From: an uncultured Acidobacteriota bacterium
GTDB lineage: Bacteria; Acidobacteriota; Vicinamibacteria; Marinacidobacterales; DATDRI01
NCBI GenBank assembly: GCA_963722765.1
Contig: CAVROO010000007.1
Coordinates: forward strand, 159,606 to 223,605
Direction: 5' to 3'
DNA: 64,000 nucleotides
Part shown: positions 638 to 36,876 of the stretch, in pieces
Layout: each line of letters begins with the position of its first letter
How positions within the stretch are numbered: the stretch's first letter is position 1
Notes under the pieces: model-generated
Seen by the model: the letters and a program-made list of their open reading frames with translations, nothing else
Told to the model about the DNA's origin: nothing
The model's database searches: none
Translations under genes and position numbers: made by a program

Positions 638-3196
638 CTATTCGTATCGCAGAGCGGTGATCGGATCGATTCGCGTTGCACGCCACGCCGGAACAGCGCT
701 TGCCAACAGGCCGACTGCCAATAAAAGGGTCGTGACAGCCGTGAATACGATGGGATCGGCGGCGCTGACCCCGTAGAGCAGGCTAGTGGCAACGCGGGCC
801 AAGGCGAAGCCGGCGGCGAGGCCGAGGGTCACGCCGATCAGGATTACTAGGGCTGCTTGTTTAACGACCATCGCGAGGGTGCCTGCTCGTGTCGCCCCGA
901 GAGCCATGCGGAGACCGATCTCTCTCGTGCGATGACTGACGGTGAAGGAAACGATTCCGTAGAGTCCCACAGCAACAAGGGCCAGCCCGACGATTCCGAA
1001 GAGCCCGACGATATGGGCCGCCATCTGCGTCGCCATGAAGGAGCTTTCGACATGTTCGTTCATCGTTCCAATGTCGAAAACGGGCAGGTTCTCATCTATG
1101 GCGCGAACCTCGGCGCGAAGCGTTGCCGCCGGACCGAGAGGATGGACCGTTGTGCGAGTCAACAAAGTCACAGCATTCGTCGCCGGTCTCTGGTAGAGGG
1201 GCAGAAACAAATATCCGACCGGATTTTCATCCAGACTTCGATACTTGCCATCCGCCGCGATGCCTATCACCTCGACCGCGGCTCTCTCTGGATTTCGTTC
1301 CGCCATGGGACCGCTGAGGTGAATGCGTTTATGGAGGGGATCCTCTCCCGGCCAGTAGAGCTCCGCAAATGTCTCGTTGACAATTGCAACGGGCCTCCCC
1401 GTCGAATCATCTTGCTCGGTGAAACTGCGACCTCGTACCACAGCGGTTCCCATCGTCTCGAAGTAGTTTGGACCCACGAGGCTATACAAGGAAACGATCT
1501 CGTCTTCTTCCTCGTTTCGAGTCTCGCGACCTTCGATACGGATACCAACAGATTCAGCGAAAAAGTCGAGAGGAAGAGGGGTGGCGAAAGAGGCCGCTTC
1601 CACCTCGGCGACGGACTCCGCGCGCGCTCGAAGGAGTCGGTAAAACTGCTCGGACCTCGTCTCGTCGTAGCCGTTCAAAGCGGGGTCGACCGACATCAAG
1701 AGCAAGTTGCCGGATTCGAATCCTGGATTGATCTCGGAGGCCTCTTGCAAACTGCGCAGAAACAATCCGGCACCGACCAAAACGACCACGGAGACGGCGA
1801 CTTGGGCGACGACCAGGCCGCCTCTCAGTCGAGAGCGAGTCACGCCCCTTGCCGACCCCGTTCCTTCACCCTTCAACGAGGGAACCAAATCGGGACGCGA
1901 AAGCCGCAGGGCCGGTATCAGACCGAAGACGACTCCGGTCGCGAAAGTGACGACGACGGCAAATCCCAAGAGACGCAGGTCGGCACCGAGATCGAAAAAG
2001 AACGGTATGTCGGTGGGAAGCTCTACGGCGGCCAACAGACGGCTGCCCCAAACGGCGAGCACCAACCCGCCCAGCCCGCCGAGCGTTGCCAGCACCACAC
2101 TCTCGGTGAGCATCTGACGAACCAAGCGCCATCGGCTCGCTCCCAGGGCCTGCCTCATGGCGATCTCCCGGTTCCGCGCCGTCGCTCGCGCCAGAAGCAG
2201 GTTGGCCACATTCGCACAGGCCACCAGAAGAACCATCCCGACAATGGCCATGATGACCGTCATGGCGAGAGTCAACATAGTGGCGGAGCCTGGGGCCGGC
2301 CGAGCTTCGCGTTCCCGGTACACTTGAATTCCGACACTCCGATTGGTGTCCGGGTACTCGAGCTCGAGTCCACGGGCCAGCGTTGTCATGGCTGCCTGCG
2401 TTTGTTCGACGCTCACACCATCGGCGAGCCGACCCACGACACGAAGCCAGCGCCGATTCCTGAGGTGAAGCATCTCCTGCCCGGAGCCCGGTGTGACCTG
2501 GTCGGCCATCATCATCGGCACCCAAGCCGCCGGTGAGAAGCCAACGACGAAAAGCCCGGTGAATCCCTTCGGCGCCACGCCGACCACCGTGAAGCTCACG
2601 CCGTTCAACTGGATCTCGCTACCGACGATCTCGGGATCGGAACCGAACCGGCTCTCCCAAAAAGCGTTGCTGAGCACCGTCACGGGGTTTCGTCCCGGAA
2701 CCTGGTCTTCTTCAGGGAGGAAGGAACGCCCGAGAGCGACCTCGACGCCCAGCACGTCGAAGTAATTGCCGGTGACGATCTCGCCATAAATGCGCTCGTT
2801 CCTGGCGCCGGCACTCAAGTTGAGAGCGCGCGGTTTATAGGCGAGCAAACCGGAAAGGACATCGTTGCCAATGCCGTCTCGATAGTCAACATAGTCCGCG
2901 TAGGAGAGATCGTAAGGATAGGGAGCTTCAGGTACTTCATTATATATACATACGAGATTGTCGGGCTCATCAACTGGTAGAGGCCGAAAAAGAAGCAAGT
3001 TGACGAGGTTGAAGATCACGGAGTTCGCGCCGATGCCGAGCGCCAGTGACAGTACCGCTACCGTCGTAAACCCGGGACTCTTCGCCAACATCCGGAACGC
3101 GAACCGTATATCCCTAATGAACGTCACCAGCGCCCTCCCTCGAGATAAGACCAGTCTCTTCAACCTTCTAACGATGTTACCGCCGCTCAGGTTCAA
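638..3196 (-). CDS. ABC transporter permease, FtsX/MacB-like ADOP family (duplicated FtsX domains), 852 aa
   Basis: Intact 852-aa ORF. N-terminal motif FAFRMLAKSPGFTTVAVLSLALGIGANSVIFNLVN is typical of Acidobacteria duplicated orphan permeases, with two FtsX-like TM bundles. Confidence 0.9.
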   Translation of the reverse strand: MNLSGGNIVRRLKRLVLSRGRALVTFIRDIRFAFRMLAKSPGFTTVAVLSLALGIGANSVIFNLVNLLLFRPLPVDEPDNLVCIYNEVPEAPYPYDLSYADYVDYRDGIGNDVLSGLLAYKPRALNLSAGARNERIYGEIVTGNYFDVLGVEVALGRSFLPEEDQVPGRNPVTVLSNAFWESRFGSDPEIVGSEIQLNGVSFTVVGVAPKGFTGLFVVGFSPAAWVPMMMADQVTPGSGQEMLHLRNRRWLRVVGRLADGVSVEQTQAAMTTLARGLELEYPDTNRSVGIQVYREREARPAPGSATMLTLAMTVIMAIVGMVLLVACANVANLLLARATARNREIAMRQALGASRWRLVRQMLTESVVLATLGGLGGLVLAVWGSRLLAAVELPTDIPFFFDLGADLRLLGFAVVVTFATGVVFGLIPALRLSRPDLVPSLKGEGTGSARGVTRSRLRGGLVVAQVAVSVVVLVGAGLFLRSLQEASEINPGFESGNLLLMSVDPALNGYDETRSEQFYRLLRARAESVAEVEAASFATPLPLDFFAESVGIRIEGRETRNEEEDEIVSLYSLVGPNYFETMGTAVVRGRSFTEQDDSTGRPVAIVNETFAELYWPGEDPLHKRIHLSGPMAERNPERAAVEVIGIAADGKYRSLDENPVGYLFLPLYQRPATNAVTLLTRTTVHPLGPAATLRAEVRAIDENLPVFDIGTMNEHVESSFMATQMAAHIVGLFGIVGLALVAVGLYGIVSFTVSHRTREIGLRMALGATRAGTLAMVVKQAALVILIGVTLGLAAGFALARVATSLLYGVSAADPIVFTAVTTLLLAVGLLASAVPAWRATRIDPITALRYE

Positions 3197-3283: not shown

Positions 3284-3853
3284 ATGACAATTAAGGCGCT
3301 CGGACGGCTGTTCTCGACAGGCTTTCTGGTAGGCGCGGCGCTTTTCGGTTCGAGCGCGACCGTGCTCGCGGCAGAGGTCTACACGGCCACGTTGGTTCGG
3401 CCCATGGGAGTCCGGGCGGACAAGGTCGCCCAACTCACGTTGACCATCGAGTCCTTCGCCACCGAGGAAGATGCGGAAAGATACCAGAAGGTACTCGCGG
3501 AGGAAGGCTCGGACGGCTTAATCAAAGTACTACGGGAAACCAAACGAGGGGTCGCCCAGGTTCAGGGTGACACGCCCCGCACTATCAACCACGTGCGTGT
3601 CTATGAAAGCGCGAATGGGTCGGCCCGCATCATTATCGTCACCGACCGGCCGCTTTTCTTCCCCGACGAAGAGCCCACACCGAGCTCGAGAGCCCATCTC
3701 GGATTCATTCAGCTCGATTTGAACAAAGACAGGGAGGGCGGAGGTAATTTAGCCGAGGTCGTTCAGATTGGCGTCGAGGAAGATGGTGGACTCCGGATCG
3801 GGTCTTCCGGTCGGAAACCCATCCTACTGAAGGACGTCCACCGGGAGCAGTGA
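3284..3853 (+). CDS. hypothetical secreted protein
   Basis: ORF with GGAGG Shine-Dalgarno 8 nt upstream of the ATG at 3284 and an N-terminal signal peptide MTIKALGRLFSTGFLVGAALFGSSATVLAAEV. No recognisable domain. Confidence 0.5.
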   Translation: MTIKALGRLFSTGFLVGAALFGSSATVLAAEVYTATLVRPMGVRADKVAQLTLTIESFATEEDAERYQKVLAEEGSDGLIKVLRETKRGVAQVQGDTPRTINHVRVYESANGSARIIIVTDRPLFFPDEEPTPSSRAHLGFIQLDLNKDREGGGNLAEVVQIGVEEDGGLRIGSSGRKPILLKDVHREQ

Positions 3854-21922: not shown

Positions 21923-23655
21923 ATGAAGCTTTTCGACTGGGCGGCACACCGCGGCGGCATGTCTCGAGTACTTTTCTCCAGTGCTTTGCTGGCACTCGGT
22001 CTCGTGCTCGTGGTCTGGGCCGGCAACCGCGCGACGAGGCGCGAGCTTCTGACGTTGCTCCGCGACCAAGCGGCGTCGTTGAGACAGACTCTAGCGGCGG
22101 CGGCACGCTCGAACTACGAAGCGAGCAAGCAAGCGGCCGGCGAGCTCGAGGTGCGCATGCTCGAGAGCGCTCACATGCTGGCCGAGCTCGACCGGCTCGA
22201 TTTACTGAATGAAAATCTACTCAACGAGATGGTTAGCCGAAACCGGTTGTTCCGTGTCACCATTTACGGGCCCAATCGCGAGGAAGAGTACGCCAGTGGA
22301 GGCGCCCGGGGTCCAAGAAGGGGCTTCGGTCCGGGATTCGCTACCGGGTACGGGGGGAGTCTTCTCGATCGATTGTACTCCGACGAAGAGGCCACACGAA
22401 GTTACGGATATACACGTGTCCCGCTGGGGCGATTGGAGGGGGTTCGCCGCCGTCCGGCGCGAATCGGGCGGTGCCATCGTATTGAACGTCGATGCCTCTC
22501 AAGATAAAAAGACTCGAGCGGCAATCTTCCCTCAATTACCTACTCGAAGACATCACCGAGAACGCGAGCGAGGTGGTTTATGTGGTTTTCGAACAGGACG
22601 CCCTCCACATCGCTCACGGCGATATCCCGAGCGACCTGGACATCGAATCCGCCCAGGACGGCACGACCTCAGACGGGAGGTGACCTTCACTCCGAGGAAC
22701 GCGAGACGGAAGTGGGCGGTCACTCCGTCCTCGAGTTCGCCGGCCCCATTGTCTTGGACGAGGAAACGACGGCGTTTCTGCGCCTCGGAATCAAGGCTCG
22801 ACGGACTGCGCCGGGCTGAGCAACGTATGCTGTGGCAACTCAGTCTGTCGCTGGCGGCGAGTCTAGCCTTGGCGTTTCTCGGTGTCGGTACGGTTTGGCT
22901 TCAGCGCAAGTACAGCTTGCTGAGTGAACGACACGATCGCACTCGGGAAGCCCTTCGGCGGAAGGATCGTCTGGCCGCCATGGGAGAGCTTTCCTCGACC
23001 GTGGCCCACGAAATAAGGAATCCACTGAATGCCATCTCCATGAGCGCCACGCGGTCTGCGTCGTGAGTTTTTGGACACCGTACCCGTTTCAGGCGACGAC
23101 CGAGAGGAGGCGGAAGAGCTCCTGGGTGTTCTCGAGGTCGAGTCGCGACGGATGAACGACCGGATTCAGCAGTTTCTGGACTTCGCCCGTCCTCCCCGCC
23201 TGGCGCCGCGTCCGACCGACCTTGGGGAGCTCACACGATCGGTAGAGGAAAGCGCAAGGGCTACAGGCGCTGCGAAAGGGGTGGAGGTCACTTCCGATCG
23301 TCCGGCGCCGGAATGGCCACAGTGGATCCCGAGCAGCTTCGGCAAGTCCTCGAGAACCTCGTCCGAAATGCCGTCGAGGCCACACCCGAAGGCGGCCGTG
23401 TATCCATCGTTGCCCGCCGCCGAGGGAAGTTCCACGAAATCGAGGTGACCGACACCGGGAAAGGGATCGAGGTTGAGCGACCTACCTCGTCTCTTCGATC
23501 TCTATTTCACTACGAAGACGGAGGGTACGGGCGTCGGATTGGCGGTGGCCCAGCAGGTAGTGACCGCTCACGGCGGAACGATCGAGGTGGACTCAACCCC
23601 GGGACGAGGTACTACAATGACCATCAAGCTACCACGTGCGGAAAGCAAATCATGA
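21923..23655 (+). CDS. sensor histidine kinase (membrane, HisKA + HATPase_c), multiple frameshifts
   Basis: N-terminal TM segment. HisKA H-box [23 protein letters not shown] in ORF 22209..23066. N-box and G-box pieces [16 protein letters not shown]...[10 protein letters not shown] and [31 protein letters not shown] in two further frames. Stop overlaps the RR start (ATGA). Confidence 0.8.
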
Positions 23656-25016
23656 GTGAACGGGTGGTTCTCGTCGTCGATGACGAAGCTTCGCAGCGCA
23701 AGGTCCTCTCCGGGTTCCTTCGCAAGCGCGGCTTCGTGACCCTGTCCGCGGAAAGTGTTGATGAAGCCCTCGAGCTCGCCGGTACCAACGTGATCGATCT
23801 CGTGATGACCGATCTCCGCATGCCCGGTCGAGACGGCATCGAGCTGCTTCGAGAGCTTCGGGCGATGAATCCCGAAGTTCCCGTGATTCTGATGACCGCC
23901 TTCGGTACCGTCGAAACCGCCGTTAACGCCATGAAGGAGGGGGCCTCGGACTACCTGACCAAGCCGATCGATCTCGACGAGCTCCTCATACTGGTGAACC
24001 GCAACCTGGAACACCGGGCACTCGAGTCCGAGAACCGGGAGCTTCGACGGCAACTCGAATCCCGTTATCGCCTGAAGGGCCTCCAAACATCGAATCCCAA
24101 AATGGCCCAAGCCATCAACGTTGCGGCTCGAGCGGCTTCGAGCCGCGCAACCATTTTGATCCGCGGCGAGAGCGGAACCGGTAAGGAGCTTCTTGCCCGC
24201 GCCATTCACTACGCGAGTCCTCGCGCCAAACGCCCATTGATCGCGGTCAACGTTGCGGCGCTTCCGGACACTCTTCTCGAGTCGGAGCTTTTCGGACACG
24301 AGCGGGGCGCGTTCACCGGTGCCGACCGGCAACACCGAGGCCGCTTCGAGCTTGCCGATACGGGGACACTTTTCCTGGACGAGATTGGGGATCTTCCTCA
24401 CGGCACACAGGCGAAACTGCTCCGGGCCCTACAAGAAAAATCCTTCGAGAGACTCGGCGGGACACGTTCGTTAAAAGTCGATGTTCGCGTACTCGCCGCC
24501 ACCCATCGTGACCTCGAGGAGATGGTTCGAAAAGGAGAGTTTCGAGAGGATCTCTATTACCGCTTGAACGTGGTCTCCATCGAGATTCCGCCTCTACGAG
24601 AACGCCGGGAGGATATTCCTCACCTCGTCGATCACTTCATTCGACAGTTCGCCGAAGAGAGCGATTCCCACGTAACGGGAATGTCCCGTGAGGCCATGGA
24701 CGGCCTACTCAAACACGATTACCCGGGCAACGTCCGCGAACTGGAGAACATGGTGCACCGTGCTATGGTGCTCGCTCGAGACTCCCTCCTCGCCGTTTCC
24801 GACTTTCCTCTCCATCTTTTAAATATTCAAAATGAAAACATTGCGCCGGACTCGCTCGTCGATCGCATGGCCAATTACGAGAAGGCGCTCCTGACCGAAG
24901 CGCTCGAAAAGGCCGGCGGAGTGAAGACCCGGGCAGCCCGTGCACTGGGTATCAGCGAAAGACATCTCCGTTACCGCCTGAGCAAATACGGCATCGAGCC
25001 CGGCGACAACGACTAG
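23652..25016 (+). CDS. sigma-54-dependent NtrC-family response regulator (REC + AAA+ sigma-54 activator + Fis-type HTH)
   Basis: REC domain (VVDDEAS...[14 protein letters not shown]). Walker [15 protein letters not shown] sigma-54 contact motif. ESELFGHE. C-terminal [18 protein letters not shown]. Intact. Confidence 0.92.
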
Positions 25017-25167
25017 CCGAGCTTCCCGCCGTTCATCGACACATTGGTCGATCGGAGTCGACCATATCGTCGAGCTTTTTGAGCCAACCTCCTACAGCCT
25101 GTCTCACCCGGTAATGCTATCGTCCTATTTTCAATCGTTTACGAAGTAAAGCCTCCTCCTATCGCAA

Positions 25168-25183
25168 TGGCCCTTCCTTTGCT
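25168..25183 (+). promoter_or_regulatory. putative sigma-54 (-24/-12) promoter driving the downstream DUF4405-polyferredoxin operon
   Basis: TGGCCCttcctTTGCT with canonical GG-N10-GC spacing, 23 nt upstream of the ATG at 25206 and directly downstream of the NtrC-like activator gene. Confidence 0.65.
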
Positions 25184-25205: not shown

Positions 25206-26120
25206 ATGAAGGAGCAGCTCATGAAAGATAACAGATTCCGATCGACCTTCTACACACGCGGCTTTACGACCTTCGTTCTGGTGATGTCGTTTCTCGTCAT
25301 CGCCGGGACCGGGATTGCCCTGTTCGCAACACCCCGGGGACGGGTGGCTCATTGGACCGACTGGACGCTCCTGGGTCTGGGGAAAGACCAGTGGAGCAGC
25401 ATTCACCTCACCGCTGCCGCCTTGTTTTTGTTCGCCGCCGCACTCCACATCGTCTTCAACTGGAAGGTCCTCAAAGGCTACCTCAAGTTGAGAAGAGTGG
25501 CGGGTCTTCGGCTCAAGCGCGAGCTCTTTGCCGCCGCCACGGTCAGCCTGTTGTTCGTAGCCGGCACTTTGGCTCAGGTTCCTCCGTTCAGCACCCTCGT
25601 CGATCTCCACCACGAGGTTAAGGATTACTGGGAGCAAACCAGCGTTCGGGCACCGGCGCCTCACGCCGAGGAGCACCATCTTTCAGCGCTTGCACAAAGG
25701 ATGGATCTTTCGACGGAGGACGTGGTCGCCACGCTCGAAGCCAGAGGTTTCACAAATCTGGAACCTGATAGGTCCTTGGCCCGAATCGCCAACGCCAACG
25801 CCGTTGCACCCAGCGAGATCTACGAAAGTTTAGAGCTCAACCATGAGCCTAGACGCCCGCAGTCCGAATCGGTCGGGCCGCGAATGGGCCGAATGACGCT
25901 CGGAGACTACTGCCGGGCCAATGGTATTTCTCTAGACCGAGCGATCGCGACTTTGCGGGATGACGGAGCTCGCGCTCACGAATCCTCGACGTTACGAGAC
26001 CTGGCAGGCTCACTCGACCTGAGACCCGGCGAGCTTGCGCGGAGGCTTGGGGGGCAAGGCGGGAATGGAGGGGTCGGAACGGAAGGCGACGACTGCAGCT
26101 CTACCCGTCGTAGTCGTTAG
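25206..26120 (+). CDS. DUF4405-like membrane protein (cytochrome-b-like 4-TM N-domain) with extended C-terminal soluble region
   Basis: N-terminal TM helices with conserved His residues (HWTDW, HLTAAALFLFAAALHIVFNW) typical of DUF4405. A ~170-aa C-terminal extension is unassigned. Confidence 0.6.
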   Translation: MKEQLMKDNRFRSTFYTRGFTTFVLVMSFLVIAGTGIALFATPRGRVAHWTDWTLLGLGKDQWSSIHLTAAALFLFAAALHIVFNWKVLKGYLKLRRVAGLRLKRELFAAATVSLLFVAGTLAQVPPFSTLVDLHHEVKDYWEQTSVRAPAPHAEEHHLSALAQRMDLSTEDVVATLEARGFTNLEPDRSLARIANANAVAPSEIYESLELNHEPRRPQSESVGPRMGRMTLGDYCRANGISLDRAIATLRDDGARAHESSTLRDLAGSLDLRPGELARRLGGQGGNGGVGTEGDDCSSTRRSR

Positions 26121-26128
26121 GTGCGGAA

Positions 26129-26545
26129 ATGAGATTACAGACATCACTCTTGCGGTTTCTCCGAGCCCTCGCCTTTCCGCTCATGATCGCCTTGGTCTCG
26201 ACACCCGACGCGAAGGCCTGTGAGATTGCCGTCAAGGTCAAGAGCGACCCGAAGCCCTCCTATCAGACGGGGGACGTCGTGGTCTTCGAGGTCACGGTTT
26301 TTCTCACCCATCACGACTGCCCGGAGGGAATCAAGGCGACCAAATTCAATGGTGAAGGACTCGAGCTTCTCGGGGCGACGAAGTGGAAAGAGATCAGCAC
26401 GGGAACCTACGTGCGGCTCGTCAAGGCAAAGGTAACGGCCGCCAAGGACGGCGCGGGGGCGCTGCACGCACGGAGGAAGTGTGACAAGGAAGGAGGGTAC
26501 GGTGTTGTGACGCTCGCCGTTCCCGCTTCGGATGATGATGTCTAG
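26129..26545 (+). CDS. hypothetical small secreted protein
   Basis: 138-aa ORF with signal peptide, 9 nt after the previous stop (operonic). Contains Cys/His residues (KACEIAV, HHDCPEG). Confidence 0.45.
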   Translation: MRLQTSLLRFLRALAFPLMIALVSTPDAKACEIAVKVKSDPKPSYQTGDVVVFEVTVFLTHHDCPEGIKATKFNGEGLELLGATKWKEISTGTYVRLVKAKVTAAKDGAGALHARRKCDKEGGYGVVTLAVPASDDDV

Positions 26546-26560
26546 GAACGTTAGCTGAGG

Positions 26561-27570
26561 GTGCTGCACATGAAATTTCATCATCGCTCGACCACCGTTG
26601 CCGCGATTTGCATCGTTCTCCTCTTTGGATTGGCCTCGGCCCCGGGACAAAACTCTGTCGATAAGGATAAGGGCGAAGCGCTTCTGGAAAACGAAGGATT
26701 CGAGAGCTTTGAAGAGTTCGAAACCCTCGATGAATCGGAGCTAGTCGAAGGCTCAGAAGAAGACAAACCCGCTCTCGAGCATCGCGGTTTTCGAATGGCG
26801 CTCATCGCGCTGGGATTCACGGTACTTGCGGGATTCCTAGTCCGATCCCGACGTCTACGGCCAACCCGAGCCGTTTTGCTCCTTGCCTCGCTCGCCGTTC
26901 TCGGTTTCTGGAATGGCGGCTGTCCCTGCCCCATTTCCAGTTTTCAGAACCTCGTTCTTTTTCTCCAAGGGGTTGACGTCAAGACTCATAGCCTGATCTG
27001 GTTCCTGGCCCTCGTTCCCATCACGTATGTCTTCGGACGAGTCTGGTGTGGGTGGATCTGCCATCTCGGGGCACTTCAGGAGTTCGTCCACAAACCGAAT
27101 CGGCTGGCCTTTTTACACGGTGAGGGTGCGCGTAAAGCCATGCGTGTCACGCGCTATGTTTTGTTCTTCTCGCTACTCGCCCAGCTCGCGCTGACGAAAG
27201 AGAACCTCTTCATCCACGTCAACCCCTTCAAGGTCGCGTTCAACATGAGATCTTTTTACTTGAGTGGTTGGATCCTTCTCGGCATCCTTCTTGTAAGCTC
27301 CCTGTACGTTTATCGGCCTTTCTGCCGTTCGGCTTGCCCGGTGGGTTTGATGCTGGGTTGGGTTGGGCGTCTGCCCTTTGCCTCCAAACTCGCTCTCAAC
27401 GACGACTGCCGGACCTGCAAGCTCTGTTCGAAGGCCTGTCCGGCGGAAGCCGTGACCACCGCTCATCAGCAAATCCAAATTAGACATGAAGATTGTTTTG
27501 CCTGTGGCTCTTGTATGGATGCCTGCAGGCGGGACTCAATTTCCTTTGAACGAAAGGGAGGCGTCGATGA
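26561..27570 (+). CDS. NapH/MauN/FixG-type membrane-bound 4Fe-4S ferredoxin; C-terminus uncertain
   Basis: TM helices with the CGWICHLGALQEF motif. Two ferredoxin motifs CRTCKLCSKACP and CFACGSCMDAC. The six-frame ORF runs to 27748, overlapping the next gene by 180 nt. A frameshift near the end would give a TGA overlapping the downstream ATG (ATGA) at 27567-27570. Confidence 0.7.
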
Positions 27571-28901
27571 CGACACGAGCAAACCGCATCACTTGGATCC
27601 TGGTTCTGTCTTTGTTCCTAGTAACAAAGTCAACGGTCGCTCAGGAATGCGACAGCCAAGTGGCGGCGCATCTGGAGCCGGTGAAGGAAGGGTCGGGGCT
27701 TTCGTGGGCGATGGAACTGACCGGCCAACTCGGTTACCTGGGTCATAGCTCACTCGATCGGGGCCTTGCCAGCGGCATGGTGTTTCTCGGTCTGCACTAC
27801 CAGTCCGACTTCGAATCTCCCCATCGCTTCTATTTCGAGGGTGGCTACAAGAACTGGTACAAGACCGACACCGGCCCGGGACTCGGCGGTGACGGGCAAA
27901 CCTTTGGTGATTTTCCAACTCCGGCAAAAGACAACTGGGGACTACGAGAAGCCTACTACGATTTCGACGGCGGCCAGACGAAGGTTACGGGCGGTCTCCA
28001 TACGGCGAGCCTCGGAGAAACGCTTCTTTTGGACGAGCGCGCTGTCGGTTTGAGCTTCCAGAGAGAGCTTGGACCGGTCCAATTTCAGATGACCACAGGC
28101 AGTGTCATGACTCGCTTCGCGAGAATGAAGGACTTCTGCGCCACTCGCCATGTCTATCGCGTCGTGCGCGGAGGACGGATCAATTACGTCGGTGACGGTT
28201 TCGGTGAAACGAATTTCTTGGGTGGCACCGTCTCTTGGTCACCCTCGGGCGGAGCGACATCGGACGACCTTGCCGGCGAGGAAGAGGAAGACGAATTTGG
28301 AGCATTCGAGGAGCTTTCTTCCTTCGAGGAATCCGAGGAAGGTCTCGTGCGCCGTGTGGGCGCCGTCTTCTTCGAAGAGTTCGGGTCTGCTTTTCTCGTC
28401 AACCAGCTTTATTACGGAGGACTCGCCGAGCTCAATCTATGGTCCGACCTCGAGCTCGAGCTCGAGTTGATCCACCAACATGTCGCCGATCATCGCGTGC
28501 TCGGATACATGGTCCAGGGTCAAAAGGACTTCACCTGGAAGTCGGGCGCCTTTACCGCCTTTCGGCTCGGTTACATCGGCAGCGCCGAGGTCGATCCGGA
28601 CGCCCGCTTCCGCCCCACCTTCAGCAATCTTTTTCTCGGAGAGGTCATGCGACTGGATGTCGCCAACATGCCTCTCGTTTTCGGGCGATTGAAACATACG
28701 CTTACTTGGAGAGGTAGGCCCTCTATCGGTTTTTTCGCCGTAGCACAAACCTCCGCAACACGTGCCGAAGAATACGACCTCGAGCTCGACGTCCATCTCA
28801 CCCGGGGTCTTCGTCTCTACGGGGTCGTTGGATTCGTGCGCGCCGAGTCTCTACCGTCGTCAACAACCGTCGCACGGGCGCAGTTCCGCTACGCTTTTTG
28901 A
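27567..28901 (+). CDS. putative outer-membrane beta-barrel protein (porin-like)
   Basis: AAGGGAGG SD 7 nt upstream. Signal peptide MTTRANRITWILVLSLFLVTKSTVAQE. Alternating amphipathic beta-strand pattern. Acidic linker EEEEDEFGAFEELSSFEESEEG. C-terminal RAQFRYAF with terminal aromatic residue. Confidence 0.6.
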   Translation: MTTRANRITWILVLSLFLVTKSTVAQECDSQVAAHLEPVKEGSGLSWAMELTGQLGYLGHSSLDRGLASGMVFLGLHYQSDFESPHRFYFEGGYKNWYKTDTGPGLGGDGQTFGDFPTPAKDNWGLREAYYDFDGGQTKVTGGLHTASLGETLLLDERAVGLSFQRELGPVQFQMTTGSVMTRFARMKDFCATRHVYRVVRGGRINYVGDGFGETNFLGGTVSWSPSGGATSDDLAGEEEEDEFGAFEELSSFEESEEGLVRRVGAVFFEEFGSAFLVNQLYYGGLAELNLWSDLELELELIHQHVADHRVLGYMVQGQKDFTWKSGAFTAFRLGYIGSAEVDPDARFRPTFSNLFLGEVMRLDVANMPLVFGRLKHTLTWRGRPSIGFFAVAQTSATRAEEYDLELDVHLTRGLRLYGVVGFVRAESLPSSTTVARAQFRYAF

Positions 28902-28917: not shown

Positions 28918-29757
28918 ATGGCATGCAATCGAAGAGATTTCATTCGCCGGAGCGGATCGCTCGTGATCGCCGGGGCGACCGGTGGATCTCTCGCCAGTCT
29001 GCTCACGGGCTGCAGTGAGAGCACCTCAACGTCACCTCTTTATGGAATCGAGATCTGCCCCAATACCTGCACGGGTTGTGGAACGTGCATCGACTCCTGC
29101 AGCAGCAGCGCCATCCAGTTGCCGCGAGAATCATCGTTTGCCATCGATTCAGCAAAGTGTGTGGAGTGCGGCGATTGCCAATCGGTTTGTGAGCCGAAGG
29201 CAATCCACGTAGCGGCAAAAAAGATCGAGCTGAACGCCGACCAGTGCGTCGGCTGCGGCGACTGCCTCGAGGTCTGCCGGAACGAGGGCGGGGCAATCCA
29301 GTGGGAACGGGATCACTACCAAGTTGGCAGTAGTTGCCACCCCGGAAGGTGCGGCCGTCCCTGCATAAGCTCTTGCCCGGAGAACGCCATTACGACGGAG
29401 CAAGGGCGAGCTCACATCGACCGCGACCGTTGCACCCGATGCGGCCGATGTCTCGAGGTCTGTCCTTACGGAGCCATTTCTCCTGCTCGGGTTCTTTTCG
29501 ACGAATCAAAGTGCACCCGATGCGGAAAGTGCGCCGATGTGTGCAACCACAACGCGATCACGAGCCAGTTGCCTGCGATCGATTTCGAGCCCAGTATCGC
29601 GCTCGACCTCTGCAATCAATGCGGTTCCTGTGAAACCGCCTGCACGCACGACGCCATTATCGCAGAGCGGTATCAAGCGACGGTTGTGGCGGAACGTTGT
29701 TCGGGGTGTGGTTCTTGCGTTCCGACCTGTCCCTTCGACGCCATTCGGACGCTGTAG
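28918..29757 (+). CDS. Tat-exported periplasmic polyferredoxin with eight [4Fe-4S] binding motifs
   Basis: Twin-arginine signal MACNRRDFIRRSGSLVIAGATGG. Eight CxxCxxCxxxC-type motifs (for example CTGCGTCIDSC, CVECGDCQSVC, CTRCGRCLEVC, CSGCGSCVPTC). Starts 17 nt after the OMP stop. Confidence 0.85.
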   Translation: MACNRRDFIRRSGSLVIAGATGGSLASLLTGCSESTSTSPLYGIEICPNTCTGCGTCIDSCSSSAIQLPRESSFAIDSAKCVECGDCQSVCEPKAIHVAAKKIELNADQCVGCGDCLEVCRNEGGAIQWERDHYQVGSSCHPGRCGRPCISSCPENAITTEQGRAHIDRDRCTRCGRCLEVCPYGAISPARVLFDESKCTRCGKCADVCNHNAITSQLPAIDFEPSIALDLCNQCGSCETACTHDAIIAERYQATVVAERCSGCGSCVPTCPFDAIRTL

Positions 29758-34478: not shown

Positions 34479-35669
34479 CTATTCCGCTCGCAAAGCCTCC
34501 ACGGGATCGAGCTTGGCTGCACGTCGTGCCGGCAAGTATCCGCTCGCAAGACCCACCAAGAGGCTCATTCCGAGAGCGGCGGCGACGGCCGCCGGCGGCG
34601 TGGCGAGGGGCAAGCCCGGGACGAACAGACGGATCAAAGATCCCAATCCAAAGCCCGTCGCCACGCCGGCCAACCCTCCGATGCAGGCAATGAAGACCGC
34701 CTCGAGGAGAAAAAGCATCGACACCGTTGTCGGGGTGAGGCCGAGTGCCCGTAAGAGACCGATTTCGTTCGTGCGTTCGTGCACCGAGATCCACATGACG
34801 GTGAGGATCCCGACGCCGCCCACAAGCAGCGAGATGCCCGCGATGCCGCTCACGGCGACGGTGACCATGTTGATGATGCGGCCAAAGGTATCGAGCATCT
34901 CCTGCTCGGTGGTGATGGTGAAGTCTTCCTGTCCGCGATGCCGTTCGGTGAGCAACCGGCGCATCGCCTCGACGGCGGAAGGAACGGCTTCAGCGCTCCG
35001 GGTCAGCACATCGATTTCGAAGAGCTCGTCAACATTGAAGAGAGCCATGGCGCTGGCCACGGGAATGTAGGCGGAATCATCGAGGTCGAATCCCAGAAGG
35101 ATCCCTTTGGGCGCCATGACACCGACAACCAGGAAGCTCCGGCCGCCAATGCGAACCCGCTCGCCCAAGGGCGAGTCCGCATCAAAGAGCTCACGTTGCC
35201 AACTTGGGACCGAGCACGACATGGGCTCCCTGGCGCCTTGGATCGATGGCGCGGCAGAAACGATCCCTGACCCACCGGGAAAGTTCCAGGTCATGGGCAT
35301 CTCGTGGGTTACCCGAATACGAAGACATGGCGACCCCTTACCCCTCCCTCGACTCGAGCTTGGCCCATGACAAGAGGGAGGAGAGTGCTCGACTCCCGGG
35401 ATTTTCCGTAGTGCCTCGGCATCATCGATGTCGAGCTTGTGAGTGGTGCCTCCGAGCACACCGGGTATTCCTACGGTCTGCGTCTTTCCCGGATTGATGG
35501 CGATGATGTGGGTTCCGAACTGGGTGAACTGCGAGACGATGTAATCGCGGGTGCCCTCCCCGAGAGAGGTCAGTAGGATCACGGTGGCGACGCCAATGGC
35601 GACACCCAATGCCGATAATCCCGAGCGTAAGCGGTGACCCGTCAATGCCGCTAGGACGAACTCGAGCAT
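34479..35669 (-). CDS. ABC transporter permease, FtsX/MacB(LolE)-like, paralog 1
   Basis: N-terminal TM, periplasmic domain, and C-terminal FtsX bundle (ERTNEIGLLRALGLTPTTV, DPVEALRAE). The middle region appears disturbed by compensating indels. Confidence 0.8.
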   Translation of the reverse strand: MLEFVLAALTGHRLRSGLSALGVAIGVATVILLTSLGEGTRDYIVSQFTQFGTHIIAINPGKTQTVGIPGVLGGTTHKLDIDDAEALRKIPGVEHSPPSCHGPSSSRGRGKGSPCLRIRVTHEMPMTWNFPGGSGIVSAAPSIQGAREPMSCSVPSWQRELFDADSPLGERVRIGGRSFLVVGVMAPKGILLGFDLDDSAYIPVASAMALFNVDELFEIDVLTRSAEAVPSAVEAMRRLLTERHRGQEDFTITTEQEMLDTFGRIINMVTVAVSGIAGISLLVGGVGILTVMWISVHERTNEIGLLRALGLTPTTVSMLFLLEAVFIACIGGLAGVATGFGLGSLIRLFVPGLPLATPPAAVAAALGMSLLVGLASGYLPARRAAKLDPVEALRAE

Positions 35670-35676
35670 CGTGACC

Positions 35677-36876
35677 TCACCTTCCCGTCAAAGCTCGGAC
35701 CGGATCCAAGCGGGTGGCCCGTCGCGCCGGCCACACGCCGAAGCCGACGCCTACCAGGAGAGACAAAACCATGGCGGAAACAACCGCCCAAAGAGGGGGT
35801 GCCGCCGGAAAGCTCGGGTAATAGCCGACGAAAGCCGTGACCGCCAGGTAACCGGCGCTCGAGCCCACCAGACCTCCCAAGATGGCCAGAAGAACAGCCT
35901 CCAACATGAAAACGACGAGAATCTGTCGGTTGGCGGCACCCAGCGCTTTGAGGAGACCGATCTCCGCCCGGCGCTCGGTGACGGAAACGAGCATGACGTT
36001 CATGATTCCCACGCCCGCAACAGTGAGCGAGATGGAGGCAATCCCCGCCAGTGCCAGGGTCATGACCTGCATGATGGAAGAGAAAGAAGTCACGACCGCA
36101 TCTTGAGAGATGACCGTGACGTCCTCGGCTCGGTGTCGCTCGGTGAAAAAATCGATGACCCCTCGACGTGTTGCCTCCGTCGTGTCGCTCGATCGAATCT
36201 CGATAAGGATCCGGAAGAGCGAGCTTCGGTTGAACATGGACATGCCGGTCTGAACGGGAACGAGCACGAGGTCGTCCACATCGAAACCGAGCGATCGTCC
36301 GTGCGGGGCGAGCACGCCGACGACTCGGAATCGCCACTCACCGATCCGCACGACCTGGCCCAGGGGGTTATCGGCTCCAAAAAGCTCTTTTGCGATCTTG
36401 ACTCCCAGCACGACCTCCATGCCGCCTTGGTCCAGATCGCCCTCTGAAAGGAAACGGCCGGAGCCCATATCGAGCTGTCGAACGTGCGAGAAATTCCGAC
36501 GTCGTTCCAACGACAGCGCCGGACCGGCCTTTTCCGCGAAAACGCACCGTCTCCGTCCCCATGGAGATGGGAGCCGCACGGCGAACACCGGGCAACGCGG
36601 CTACGGAGGAGCCGGAAGTCTTCCAGAGTCAGGTCGTGGGTGACCCCTCCGAAGGGCATGGCGCCGGTGGTCTCTACTTTGCCCGGGCAGAACGATCAAG
36701 ATGTTGGTGCCAAGGGCGGAGAACTCGCGGGTGACGTAGTTCCTAGCGCCTTCGCCCAATGCGGTCAGAGCGATGACGGCCGAGATCCCGACCGCCACGC
36801 CGGCAACGGAAAGTACCGTCCGGAGACGATGCCCGGCGAGAGCACCGGCAGCGAAGCGGAGCAGATCCAGAGACAT
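35677..36876 (-). CDS. ABC transporter permease, FtsX/MacB-like, paralog 2, with frameshifts
   Basis: Start MSLDLLRFAAGALAGHRLRTVLSVAG in ORF 36601..36999. FtsX C-terminus ERRAEIGLLKALGAANRQI...DPVRALTGR in ORF 35677..36588. Confidence 0.8.

Follow-up and report, generated by a model that had tools for sequence, protein, structure and literature searches.

The window analyzed here is a 64-kb stretch (64,000 nucleotides) of contig CAVROO010000007.1 from an uncultured Acidobacteriota bacterium, and the gene in question encodes a putatively exported iron-sulfur protein with eight four-cysteine motifs, which we call the polyferredoxin. It is the last gene of a conserved, uncharacterized operon, a tightly packed run on the plus strand that encodes, in this order, a DUF4405 membrane protein, a small protein with conserved cysteines and a conserved histidine (the small Cys/His protein), a NapH-like membrane iron-sulfur protein, an outer-membrane beta-barrel and the polyferredoxin (Table 1). 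Within this run the genes overlap or are separated by gaps of 8-16 nt, and a gap of 364 nt follows the polyferredoxin. The gap between the barrel and the polyferredoxin holds a Shine-Dalgarno-like GAGAGGGA; a preliminary description of this DNA, made from the sequence alone, had put it at 17 nt, and since the barrel gene ends at 28901 the correct figure is 16 nt.

Table 1. Positions of the operon genes and of the features upstream of them, in window coordinates.
Feature	Position	Strand	Details
Sensor histidine kinase, split over at least four frames	21923..23655	+	HisKA and HATPase_c pieces in different frames
Sigma-54-dependent response regulator	23652..25016	+	Response_reg, Sigma54_activat, HTH_8
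Palindrome TCGACCATATCGTCGA, candidate upstream activator site	25058..25073	+	~100 nt upstream of the promoter element
Candidate sigma-54 -24/-12 promoter TGGCCCTTCCTTTGC	25168..25182	+	24 nt before the DUF4405 ATG
DUF4405 membrane protein	25206..26120	+	304 aa; PF14358, E = 6.5e-16; first operon gene in Acidobacteriota-type loci
Small secreted or lipid-anchored protein, unnamed family	26129..26545	+	138 aa; signal peptide ends ...A-C31
NapH-like polytopic membrane iron-sulfur protein	26561..27748	+	Fer4_5, CX3CH, CX3CP, two C-terminal CxxCxxCxxxC, CPC
Outer-membrane beta-barrel, unnamed family	27567..28901	+	444 aa from the signal-peptide start; Cys28, Cys191; ends ...RYAF
Putative Tat-signal lipoprotein polyferredoxin	28918..29757	+	279 aa; RRDFIRR aa 5-11, lipobox LLTG-C32, eight four-Cys motifs

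The polyferredoxin and the proteins encoded with it

The polyferredoxin open reading frame (ORF) translates without interruption into a protein that starts MACNRRDFIRRSGSLVIAGATGGSLASLLTGCSES. Its N-terminus, MACNRRDFIRR, carries the twin-arginine signal that the preliminary description had pointed out, and the observation holds up, with Arg5 and Arg6 nearly invariant in an alignment of 19 sequences, namely the window protein and 18 homologues of 37-85% identity; this alignment underlies all statements on residue conservation in the polyferredoxin below. The signal peptide ends with a lipobox, L-L-T-G-C32, whose cysteine is invariant and which, like the NapH-like protein, had been overlooked before. 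Among 20 homologue ORFs from fetched loci, 19 keep both the RRxF and the lipobox cysteine and have Gly, Ala or Ser before that cysteine, the exception being the short L046 fragment, which has none of these.

The four-cysteine motifs lie at aa 51-61, 81-91, 110-120, 140-153, 172-182, 199-209, 232-242 and 261-271. The earlier count of eight CxxCxxCxxxC motifs is right as to their number but slightly overstated as to their form, because the canonical pattern is found in seven of the eight and the fourth (aa 140-153), CHPGRCGRPCISSC, reads Cx4Cx3Cx3C. Together with Cys32, the 32 cysteines of these motifs make up the 33 invariant cysteines of the alignment. Because the motif cysteines and Cys32 are invariant and Arg5 and Arg6 nearly so, we conclude that the ORF is a real feature under selection. 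In Pfam, 14 families match the protein at E <= 0.01, all of them generic 4Fe-4S families (Fer4, Fer4_6, Fer4_7, Fer4_21 and others), and the Fer4 match (E = 6e-40, in six separate stretches) is far beyond chance.

The Tat (twin-arginine translocation) pathway exports iron-sulfur proteins with RR signals in a folded state with their cofactors loaded, and the cysteine of a lipobox becomes acylated. From its sequence, we predict that the polyferredoxin is a Tat-exported lipoprotein, and as a lipoprotein it would be attached to the face of a membrane instead of being free in the periplasm. In Escherichia coli lipoproteins, a residue other than Asp at position +2 favors sorting to the outer membrane, and the residue at +2 after the lipobox cysteine here is Ser. 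The motif starts are spaced 27-33 aa apart, which is the spacing of clostridial 2x[4Fe-4S] ferredoxins and points to four tandem two-cluster modules within about 235 residues. These features favor the earlier proposal of eight [4Fe-4S]-type sites in a chain exported by Tat, which is double the number in NrfC/DmsB-type subunits. The homologues have 34-82 cysteines, corresponding to 8, 10, 12, 14, 16 or about 20 motifs, while the signal, the anchor and the genomic position are constant. Given this variable number of clusters, a spacer or wire is more fitting than a protein whose catalytic site is defined.

The Tat-exported ferredoxin NapG and the membrane protein NapH together make up a quinol dehydrogenase, and fusions of NapH to NapG occur naturally (PMC5449189). 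The protein encoded two genes upstream of the polyferredoxin matches the NapH/MauN model TIGR02163 with 82.7 bits (E = 2.9e-23), which is below the model cut-off of 213, and E. coli NapH with 28% identity over 183 aa (E = 9e-14). Both CX3C(P/H) motifs of E. coli NapH are retained in it, and so are the two CxxCxxCxxxC motifs at the C-terminus. The additions specific to its family are an N-terminal signal-like helix, a (D/E)(D/E)F-rich acidic stretch, a further helix, and, in a loop, a CPC that aligns with VPL in E. coli NapH. Other NapH-like proteins have been described as modular transmembrane units that pass electrons to extracytosolic partners (PMC8238504).

The preliminary description had noted that no molybdopterin or NrfD-type partner is encoded nearby, and we agree that a catalytic partner is absent: among the window ORFs of at least 150 aa there is no gene for a molybdopterin, NrfD-type or c-type cytochrome protein, and these ORFs, including those of the operon, have zero CxxCH motifs. 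The orphan status that this implied is not supported, however: for NapG, a ferredoxin exported by Tat, the established partner is NapH, so that a membrane partner of the canonical type for such a ferredoxin is encoded two genes away.

We noted that the NapH-like ORF overlaps the barrel ORF by 182 nt (27567-27748) in another frame and that its final ~60 aa lack conservation among homologues. We also noted (D/E)(D/E)F-rich acidic stretches in both proteins, at aa 33-72 of the NapH-like protein (26660-26780) and aa 228-257 of the barrel (28255-28340), and such paired stretches recur in homologues from other phyla. They could form a cation-binding or docking site.

The description of the upstream neighbor of the polyferredoxin as an outer-membrane beta-barrel is supported by its signal peptide, by its ...RYAF end and by an AlphaFold model of moderate confidence (pLDDT 61, pTM 0.59) with 18 long strands, for which Foldseek finds the 18-strand OprD/Occ channels, Campylobacter MOMP and AlgE (E 7e-10 and weaker). 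The public record starts this protein at a later Met (396 aa, P0034), which loses the signal peptide, and the start at 27567 corrects that gene call. The conserved motifs of the barrel are FARMxDFCxTRHVY and FSNLFLGEVMRLD. In the model, these two most conserved motifs appear to fall in long, low-confidence segments between strands (aa 180-215 and 340-369), and by strand parity we infer that the acidic insert lies in a periplasmic turn. [quoted passage not shown] The barrel has no match in Pfam even at E <= 10, none in NCBIfam, and no meaningful match in a PDB sequence profile search. An exhaustive search of 1.84 billion proteins gave 136 representatives of its family, and the best match in a scan of species-level genomes was in an Acidobacteriota metagenome-assembled genome (MAG), at 63% identity.

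In the small Cys/His protein, the residue that follows the signal peptide, Cys31, is invariant among 28 species-level members, as are Cys64, Cys118 and an RxCxKxGG motif, and His61 is present in 27 of them. Its family comprises at least 135 sequence clusters, all of them stand-alone proteins of about 125 aa and all labelled hypothetical. Searches of Pfam (E <= 10), NCBIfam and PDB profiles gave no match. We tried a relationship to DUF2271 and rejected it (hhalign probability 0.1). The barrel and the small Cys/His protein are thus two unannotated families that now have a testable redox context.

Relation to known families and distribution of the module

When the polyferredoxin profile was compared with solved structures, the best matches were MvhB (3.5e-39) and FwdF (4.8e-28), both over several stretches of the profile, followed by RnfB. 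An identity of the NrfC/DmsB type was rejected: Fer4_11 (PF13247), which represents that type, is not among the 14 Pfam matches at E <= 0.01, and NrfC (2vpw_B) scores 3.9e-7 over part of the profile. This agrees with the earlier view that the protein falls outside the known electron-transfer families of complex iron-sulfur molybdoenzymes (CISM). Membership of NapG was also rejected, and we keep NapG as a functional analogy; the match to E. coli NapG is weak and generic (26% over 146 aa, 33.5 bits), and the NapG/MauM model is absent from the 25 best of the 85 NCBIfam matches. The NCBIfam models of archaeal polyferredoxins match far below their cut-offs (VhuB NF045874, 73.7 vs 600; FwdF NF042909, 70.4 vs 375). 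Judged by these profiles, the polyferredoxin is neither a CISM four-cluster subunit nor an orthologue of NapG or of an archaeal polyferredoxin, and we predict that it is a bacterial, exported, lipid-anchored relative of MvhB and FwdF made from the same tandem modules.

The CISM subunits (NrfC, DmsB, HmcB, DsrO, PsrB) resemble it as Tat-dependent periplasmic iron-sulfur electron-transfer proteins, but they have four clusters where the polyferredoxin has eight motifs, all conserved, and they are encoded with a molybdopterin and/or NrfD-type subunit, which we found neither among the window ORFs nor in related loci. In NapG/NapH, as in MauM/MauN and NosG/NosH, a Tat-signal multi-[4Fe-4S] protein is likewise encoded with a polytopic membrane protein of the NapH type. 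In contrast to the polyferredoxin with its eight motifs and predicted lipid anchor, NapG/MauM proteins are about 230 aa long and have four cluster motifs, and whereas the Nap system includes NapA, NapB and NapC, the polyferredoxin operon lacks these and has the outer-membrane barrel and the small Cys/His protein as constant neighbors. MvhB/VhuB and FwdF share the tandem clostridial-type 2x[4Fe-4S] modules, and FwdF also has eight clusters. However, these work in the cytoplasm as subunits of hydrogenase/heterodisulfide reductase or formylmethanofuran dehydrogenase, whereas the polyferredoxin is bacterial, with a Tat signal and a lipobox, and no hydrogenase or formylmethanofuran dehydrogenase genes were found near it in the 64-kb window. 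Conservatively, then, we count the system as a variant of the NapGH-type pair, with twice the clusters, a lipid anchor, MvhB/FwdF-like modules and two unnamed families.

The polyferredoxin family is rare, with about 20 full-length members in 5.8 billion clusters. The barrel is not a chance neighbor: the order small protein, NapH-like protein, barrel, polyferredoxin recurs across phyla, and we observed it in L001 (a 410-kb contig), L005, L006, L008 (KSB1), L010 and the P0003 contig. On the P0003 contig the module is accompanied by a kinase, a sigma-54 regulator and a DUF4405 gene, as in the window. In L005, a Bacteroidales MAG, the barrel is split in two, and genes for ApbE, a DUF2271 protein and an ArsP_1 permease lie downstream. 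Scanning GTDB species with the barrel alignment gave 39 loci, one per species-level genome, from Bacteroidales/Prolixibacteraceae, Acidobacteriota, KSB1, Zixibacteria, Myxococcota, Neomarinimicrobiota, Kapaibacterium and Gammaproteobacteria. In searches with hidden Markov models, the small protein, the NapH-like protein and the barrel were found together in about 30 of the fetched loci, and a polyferredoxin with RRxF and a lipobox directly follows the barrel in about 19 distinct loci. Our literature searches found no description of this four-gene module, which is not proof that none exists. We consider the conserved module, together with cultured organisms in which it can be tested, to be the most useful result of this analysis; the cultured carriers, which are amenable to genetics, are Mangrovibacterium lignilyticum BM_7 and Plebeiibacterium marinum D04, both from the Bacteroidales/Prolixibacteraceae loci of the scan, and Draconibacterium spp.

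Three of the 136 barrels are fused to a NapH-like protein (P0218, P0238 and P0251; 856-904 aa, mutually less than 50% identical, each with an internal signal peptide), and these fusions are independent evidence that the inner- and outer-membrane components cooperate. They are also odd proteins, in that an inner-membrane protein is joined to an outer-membrane protein, and they would need internal cleavage.

The distribution bears on an explanation in which the polyferredoxin is a generic NapG/NosG-like ferredoxin for a respiratory reductase encoded elsewhere, and the barrel and small protein beside it are mechanistically meaningless. Modules of the NapGH type do feed separately encoded enzymes, the preliminary description itself allowed for partners elsewhere in the genome, and one homologue, P0019 (in L003/L004), has no barrel nearby and adjoins an Rrf2 regulator and a hybrid-cluster protein. 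But the neighborhood is tightly spaced and conserved across phyla, the polyferredoxin family is almost confined to the barrel context, and in no locus did we see a catalytic oxidoreductase in the place of the barrel. Because of the conserved synteny and the natural fusions, we regard this explanation as very improbable.

The module is not always complete. At least five loci (L019, L023, L024, L026, L032) have the core of small protein, NapH-like protein and barrel with no polyferredoxin after the barrel, so the putative wire is an accessory of this core and is not essential to it. In these five loci we found no multiheme cytochrome in place of the polyferredoxin; the genes downstream are unrelated or encode a peroxiredoxin or an MMPL transporter. 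In a distant subgroup of Bacteroidales that has no NapH-like protein, the small protein and the barrel adjoin a DUF2271 protein, with small lipoprotein ferredoxins nearby. The DUF2271 neighbors have a TGAT flavinylation motif in seven of nine cases, and a type IX secretion C-terminal domain. DUF2271 has been shown experimentally to be a substrate of ApbE flavinylation and is linked to extracytosolic iron reduction. We observed loci of this type in L037-L044, L048 and L049 (e.g. L044 4415-7230) and in L035 (7299-9151). Their lipoprotein-like ferredoxins have Lys-rich signal peptides with no twin arginine, which is unexpected for exported iron-sulfur proteins.

A possible electron path and its alternatives

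Our preferred interpretation, to which we give an even chance of being correct, is that the polyferredoxin is a NapG-like periplasmic electron wire leading from the NapH-type membrane module to a site at the outer membrane. In this scheme the polyferredoxin would fold and take up eight [4Fe-4S]-type clusters while still in the cytoplasm, and would then be exported by Tat and anchored by a lipid at Cys32, probably in the inner leaflet of the outer membrane. The NapH-like protein would exchange electrons with the quinone pool or a cytoplasmic donor, and the DUF4405 membrane protein may participate in this clade. As a functional equivalent of NapG that is twice as long and tethered near the barrel, the polyferredoxin would carry the electrons across the periplasm and deliver them to a site at the 18-strand barrel and the small Cys/His protein, where a substrate passing through the barrel or bound at it would be reduced; with an inward flow it would be oxidized instead. 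A metal or chalcogen species is the probable substrate. The conserved extracytoplasmic cysteines, including the CPC, the ArsP_1 permease, the acidic stretches and the DUF2271/ApbE neighbors hint at a thiol relay, or at a metal or chalcogen species of thiophilic character. The adjacent sigma-54 two-component system appears to switch the operon on in this genome.

A published parallel to such a wire is found in the flavinylated NapH-like systems (Meheust et al. 2021), which also combine a NapH-like membrane module with a secreted or lipidated electron carrier; in addition, the distant subgroup of barrel and small protein lies beside a DUF2271 flavinylation substrate. Those systems have an FMN-binding domain and ApbE, whereas here the NapH-like protein lacks such a domain, ApbE is absent from the window, and the carrier is a polyferredoxin. 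Gram-positive bacteria and some periplasmic systems rely on flavinylated proteins, and a tethered periplasmic polyferredoxin, if our interpretation is true, would be a further solution. The module occurs in abundant anaerobes of sediments, soils and gut-related habitats, for which redox reactions with minerals and metals are little understood.

Several observations weigh against a periplasmic wire of this kind. The functional links among the proteins of the module all come from gene neighborhood, and there are a homologue with no barrel and core loci with no polyferredoxin. The AlphaFold model of the polyferredoxin, built with the 19-sequence alignment, is poor (pLDDT 53.9), so that the cluster spacing and overall shape cannot be read from it, and we used it neither for geometry nor for a fold search. 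For regulation, matches to the sigma-54 pattern are no commoner in the whole window than expected by chance, and the promoter is a consensus match kept in one relative. The three invariant cysteines of the small protein and the two of the barrel, with the CPC of the NapH-like protein, could equally well form a thiol or metal relay to which the wire is only a side input. Lastly, the clusters of NapH face the cytoplasm (PMC5449189), and how electrons cross the membrane is unsettled even for NapGH.

The conserved cysteines are also the starting point of a different explanation, a metal or metalloid module, in which the barrel would be a channel and the small protein a periplasmic binder or chaperone for thiophilic species (Cu, Fe, Se, Te, As), the NapH-like protein would be a metal reductase like CcoG, and the polyferredoxin would merely supply reducing power when present. 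CcoG is a cupric reductase of the NapH family. This would account for the conservation of extracytoplasmic cysteines (in the small protein three Cys and a His, in the barrel two Cys, and in the NapH-like protein the CPC, which is absent from E. coli NapH) and for the (D/E)(D/E)F-rich stretches in the N-terminal segment of the NapH-like protein and the barrel insert. It would also fit the ArsP_1-type permease with a CSC motif found downstream in seven loci, together with a second copy of the small protein, the ApbE and DUF2271 genes in L005, which are linked to iron reduction and assimilation, and the occurrence of the core with no polyferredoxin. However, genes for metal transport or metal sensing are absent from the window operon, no metal-site family known from Pfam or PDB shows this ligand pattern, and a wire of 8 to 20 clusters would be a heavy investment for a housekeeping metal reductase. 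We consider a module of this kind to be quite unlikely.

The gene order also invites comparison with the porin-cytochrome conduits (MtrAB, PioAB/MtoAB, Geobacter Pcc, ExtHIJKL), where the gene of an outer-membrane barrel adjoins that of a periplasmic or lipoprotein multi-center redox protein. The conduits have c-type hemes in contrast to the iron-sulfur clusters predicted here, and their MtrB-type porins are unrelated in sequence to our predicted 18-strand barrel, which has no Pfam match. ExtJ is a small periplasmic protein, like the small Cys/His protein. It is a doubtful but not unreasonable idea that the four genes make up a heme-free route by which electrons leave the inner membrane and reach or cross the outer membrane, as an iron-sulfur counterpart of these conduits.

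In its full form, this idea would have the barrel sheathe part of the polyferredoxin or the small protein, so that electrons are exchanged with partners that are insoluble or outside the cell, for example Fe(III)/Mn(IV) minerals, sulfur, electrodes and other cells, as an analogue of MtrAB, PioAB, Pcc and Ext. Consistent with this are the layout of a barrel gene followed by a lipoprotein multi-center redox protein, which matches the porin-cytochrome clusters (ExtI, PioAB), the range of 8 to about 20 redox centers, and the complete lack of CxxCH in the window ORFs of at least 150 aa. In the distant subgroup, moreover, the DUF2271 neighbor with its flavinylation motif and type IX sorting domain is a cell-surface redox protein, and the carriers are mostly sediment and soil anaerobes known only as MAGs. 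On the other hand, the barrel as modeled (pLDDT 61) has only 18 strands and resembles the substrate channels OprD/Occ and AlgE, which would make it narrower than the 26-strand MtrB. The two-cluster ferredoxin module of about 55 aa is itself about as wide as an 18-strand lumen. [4Fe-4S] clusters would be fragile outside the cell, and the residues after the anchor cysteine in the Bacteroidales homologues have no obvious acidic signal for surface export. We think that a conduit through the barrel is unlikely. If true, it would add a novel type of electron path spanning the envelope, and Bacteroidales, Acidobacteriota, KSB1 and Zixibacteria, which are not known for extracellular electron transfer, could exchange electrons with extracellular metals, sulfur and partner cells.

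Candidate regulatory elements and other genes

Upstream of the DUF4405 gene, which is also present in the P0003 contig and in L011, we noted a TGGCCC-N5-TTGC element and a palindrome (Table 1), and the combination is suggestive of a sigma-54 promoter with an activator site. L011 is an Acidobacteriota MAG and the closest species-level relative. It has TGGCCCGCCTCTTGC (TGGCCC-N5-TTGC) at about 3566-3580, 26 nt before the homologous ATG, and this is the only match to TGGC-N7-TTGC in the 13-kb locus. A palindrome, TCGACCATTTCGTCGA, lies at a similar upstream distance in L011 (about 3458-3473), and the form shared by the two genomes is TCGACCAT(A/T)TCGTCGA. Alternatively, the palindrome could be the terminator stem of the regulator gene. 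The kinase and sigma-54 regulator pair also flanks the module in the P0003 contig. The kinase of the window is split, and it may be a pseudogene or reflect indel errors in the assembly; its homologue in the P0003 contig is intact, at 564 aa.

In several other loci we observed additional genes beside the module. The ArsP_1-family permease with a CSC motif lies downstream of it in the seven loci mentioned above (e.g. L029 4155-5165, L034 8300-9723, L035 9151-10535 and L005 13944-14918), and in L029, L034 and L035 the second copy of the small protein, which is divergent, precedes the permease. A small secreted protein with the pattern CSGC-x-H-x4-CSGC precedes the module in L001 (6936-7262), L006 (6934-7248) and L010 (6550-6891), a position that is taken by the DUF4405 protein in the window. 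Elsewhere in the window, at 638-3091 and 34479-36588, there are several MacB/FtsX-type permease genes, one of them a duplicated gene of 817 aa. These permeases, taken with the barrel's best match in an Acidobacteriota MAG, point to a probable Acidobacteriota origin for the window. In Mangrovibacterium lignilyticum (L034 19-4147), the ORFs directly before the module resemble a Na+-NQR (nqrB-F) operon, both by sequence and by order.

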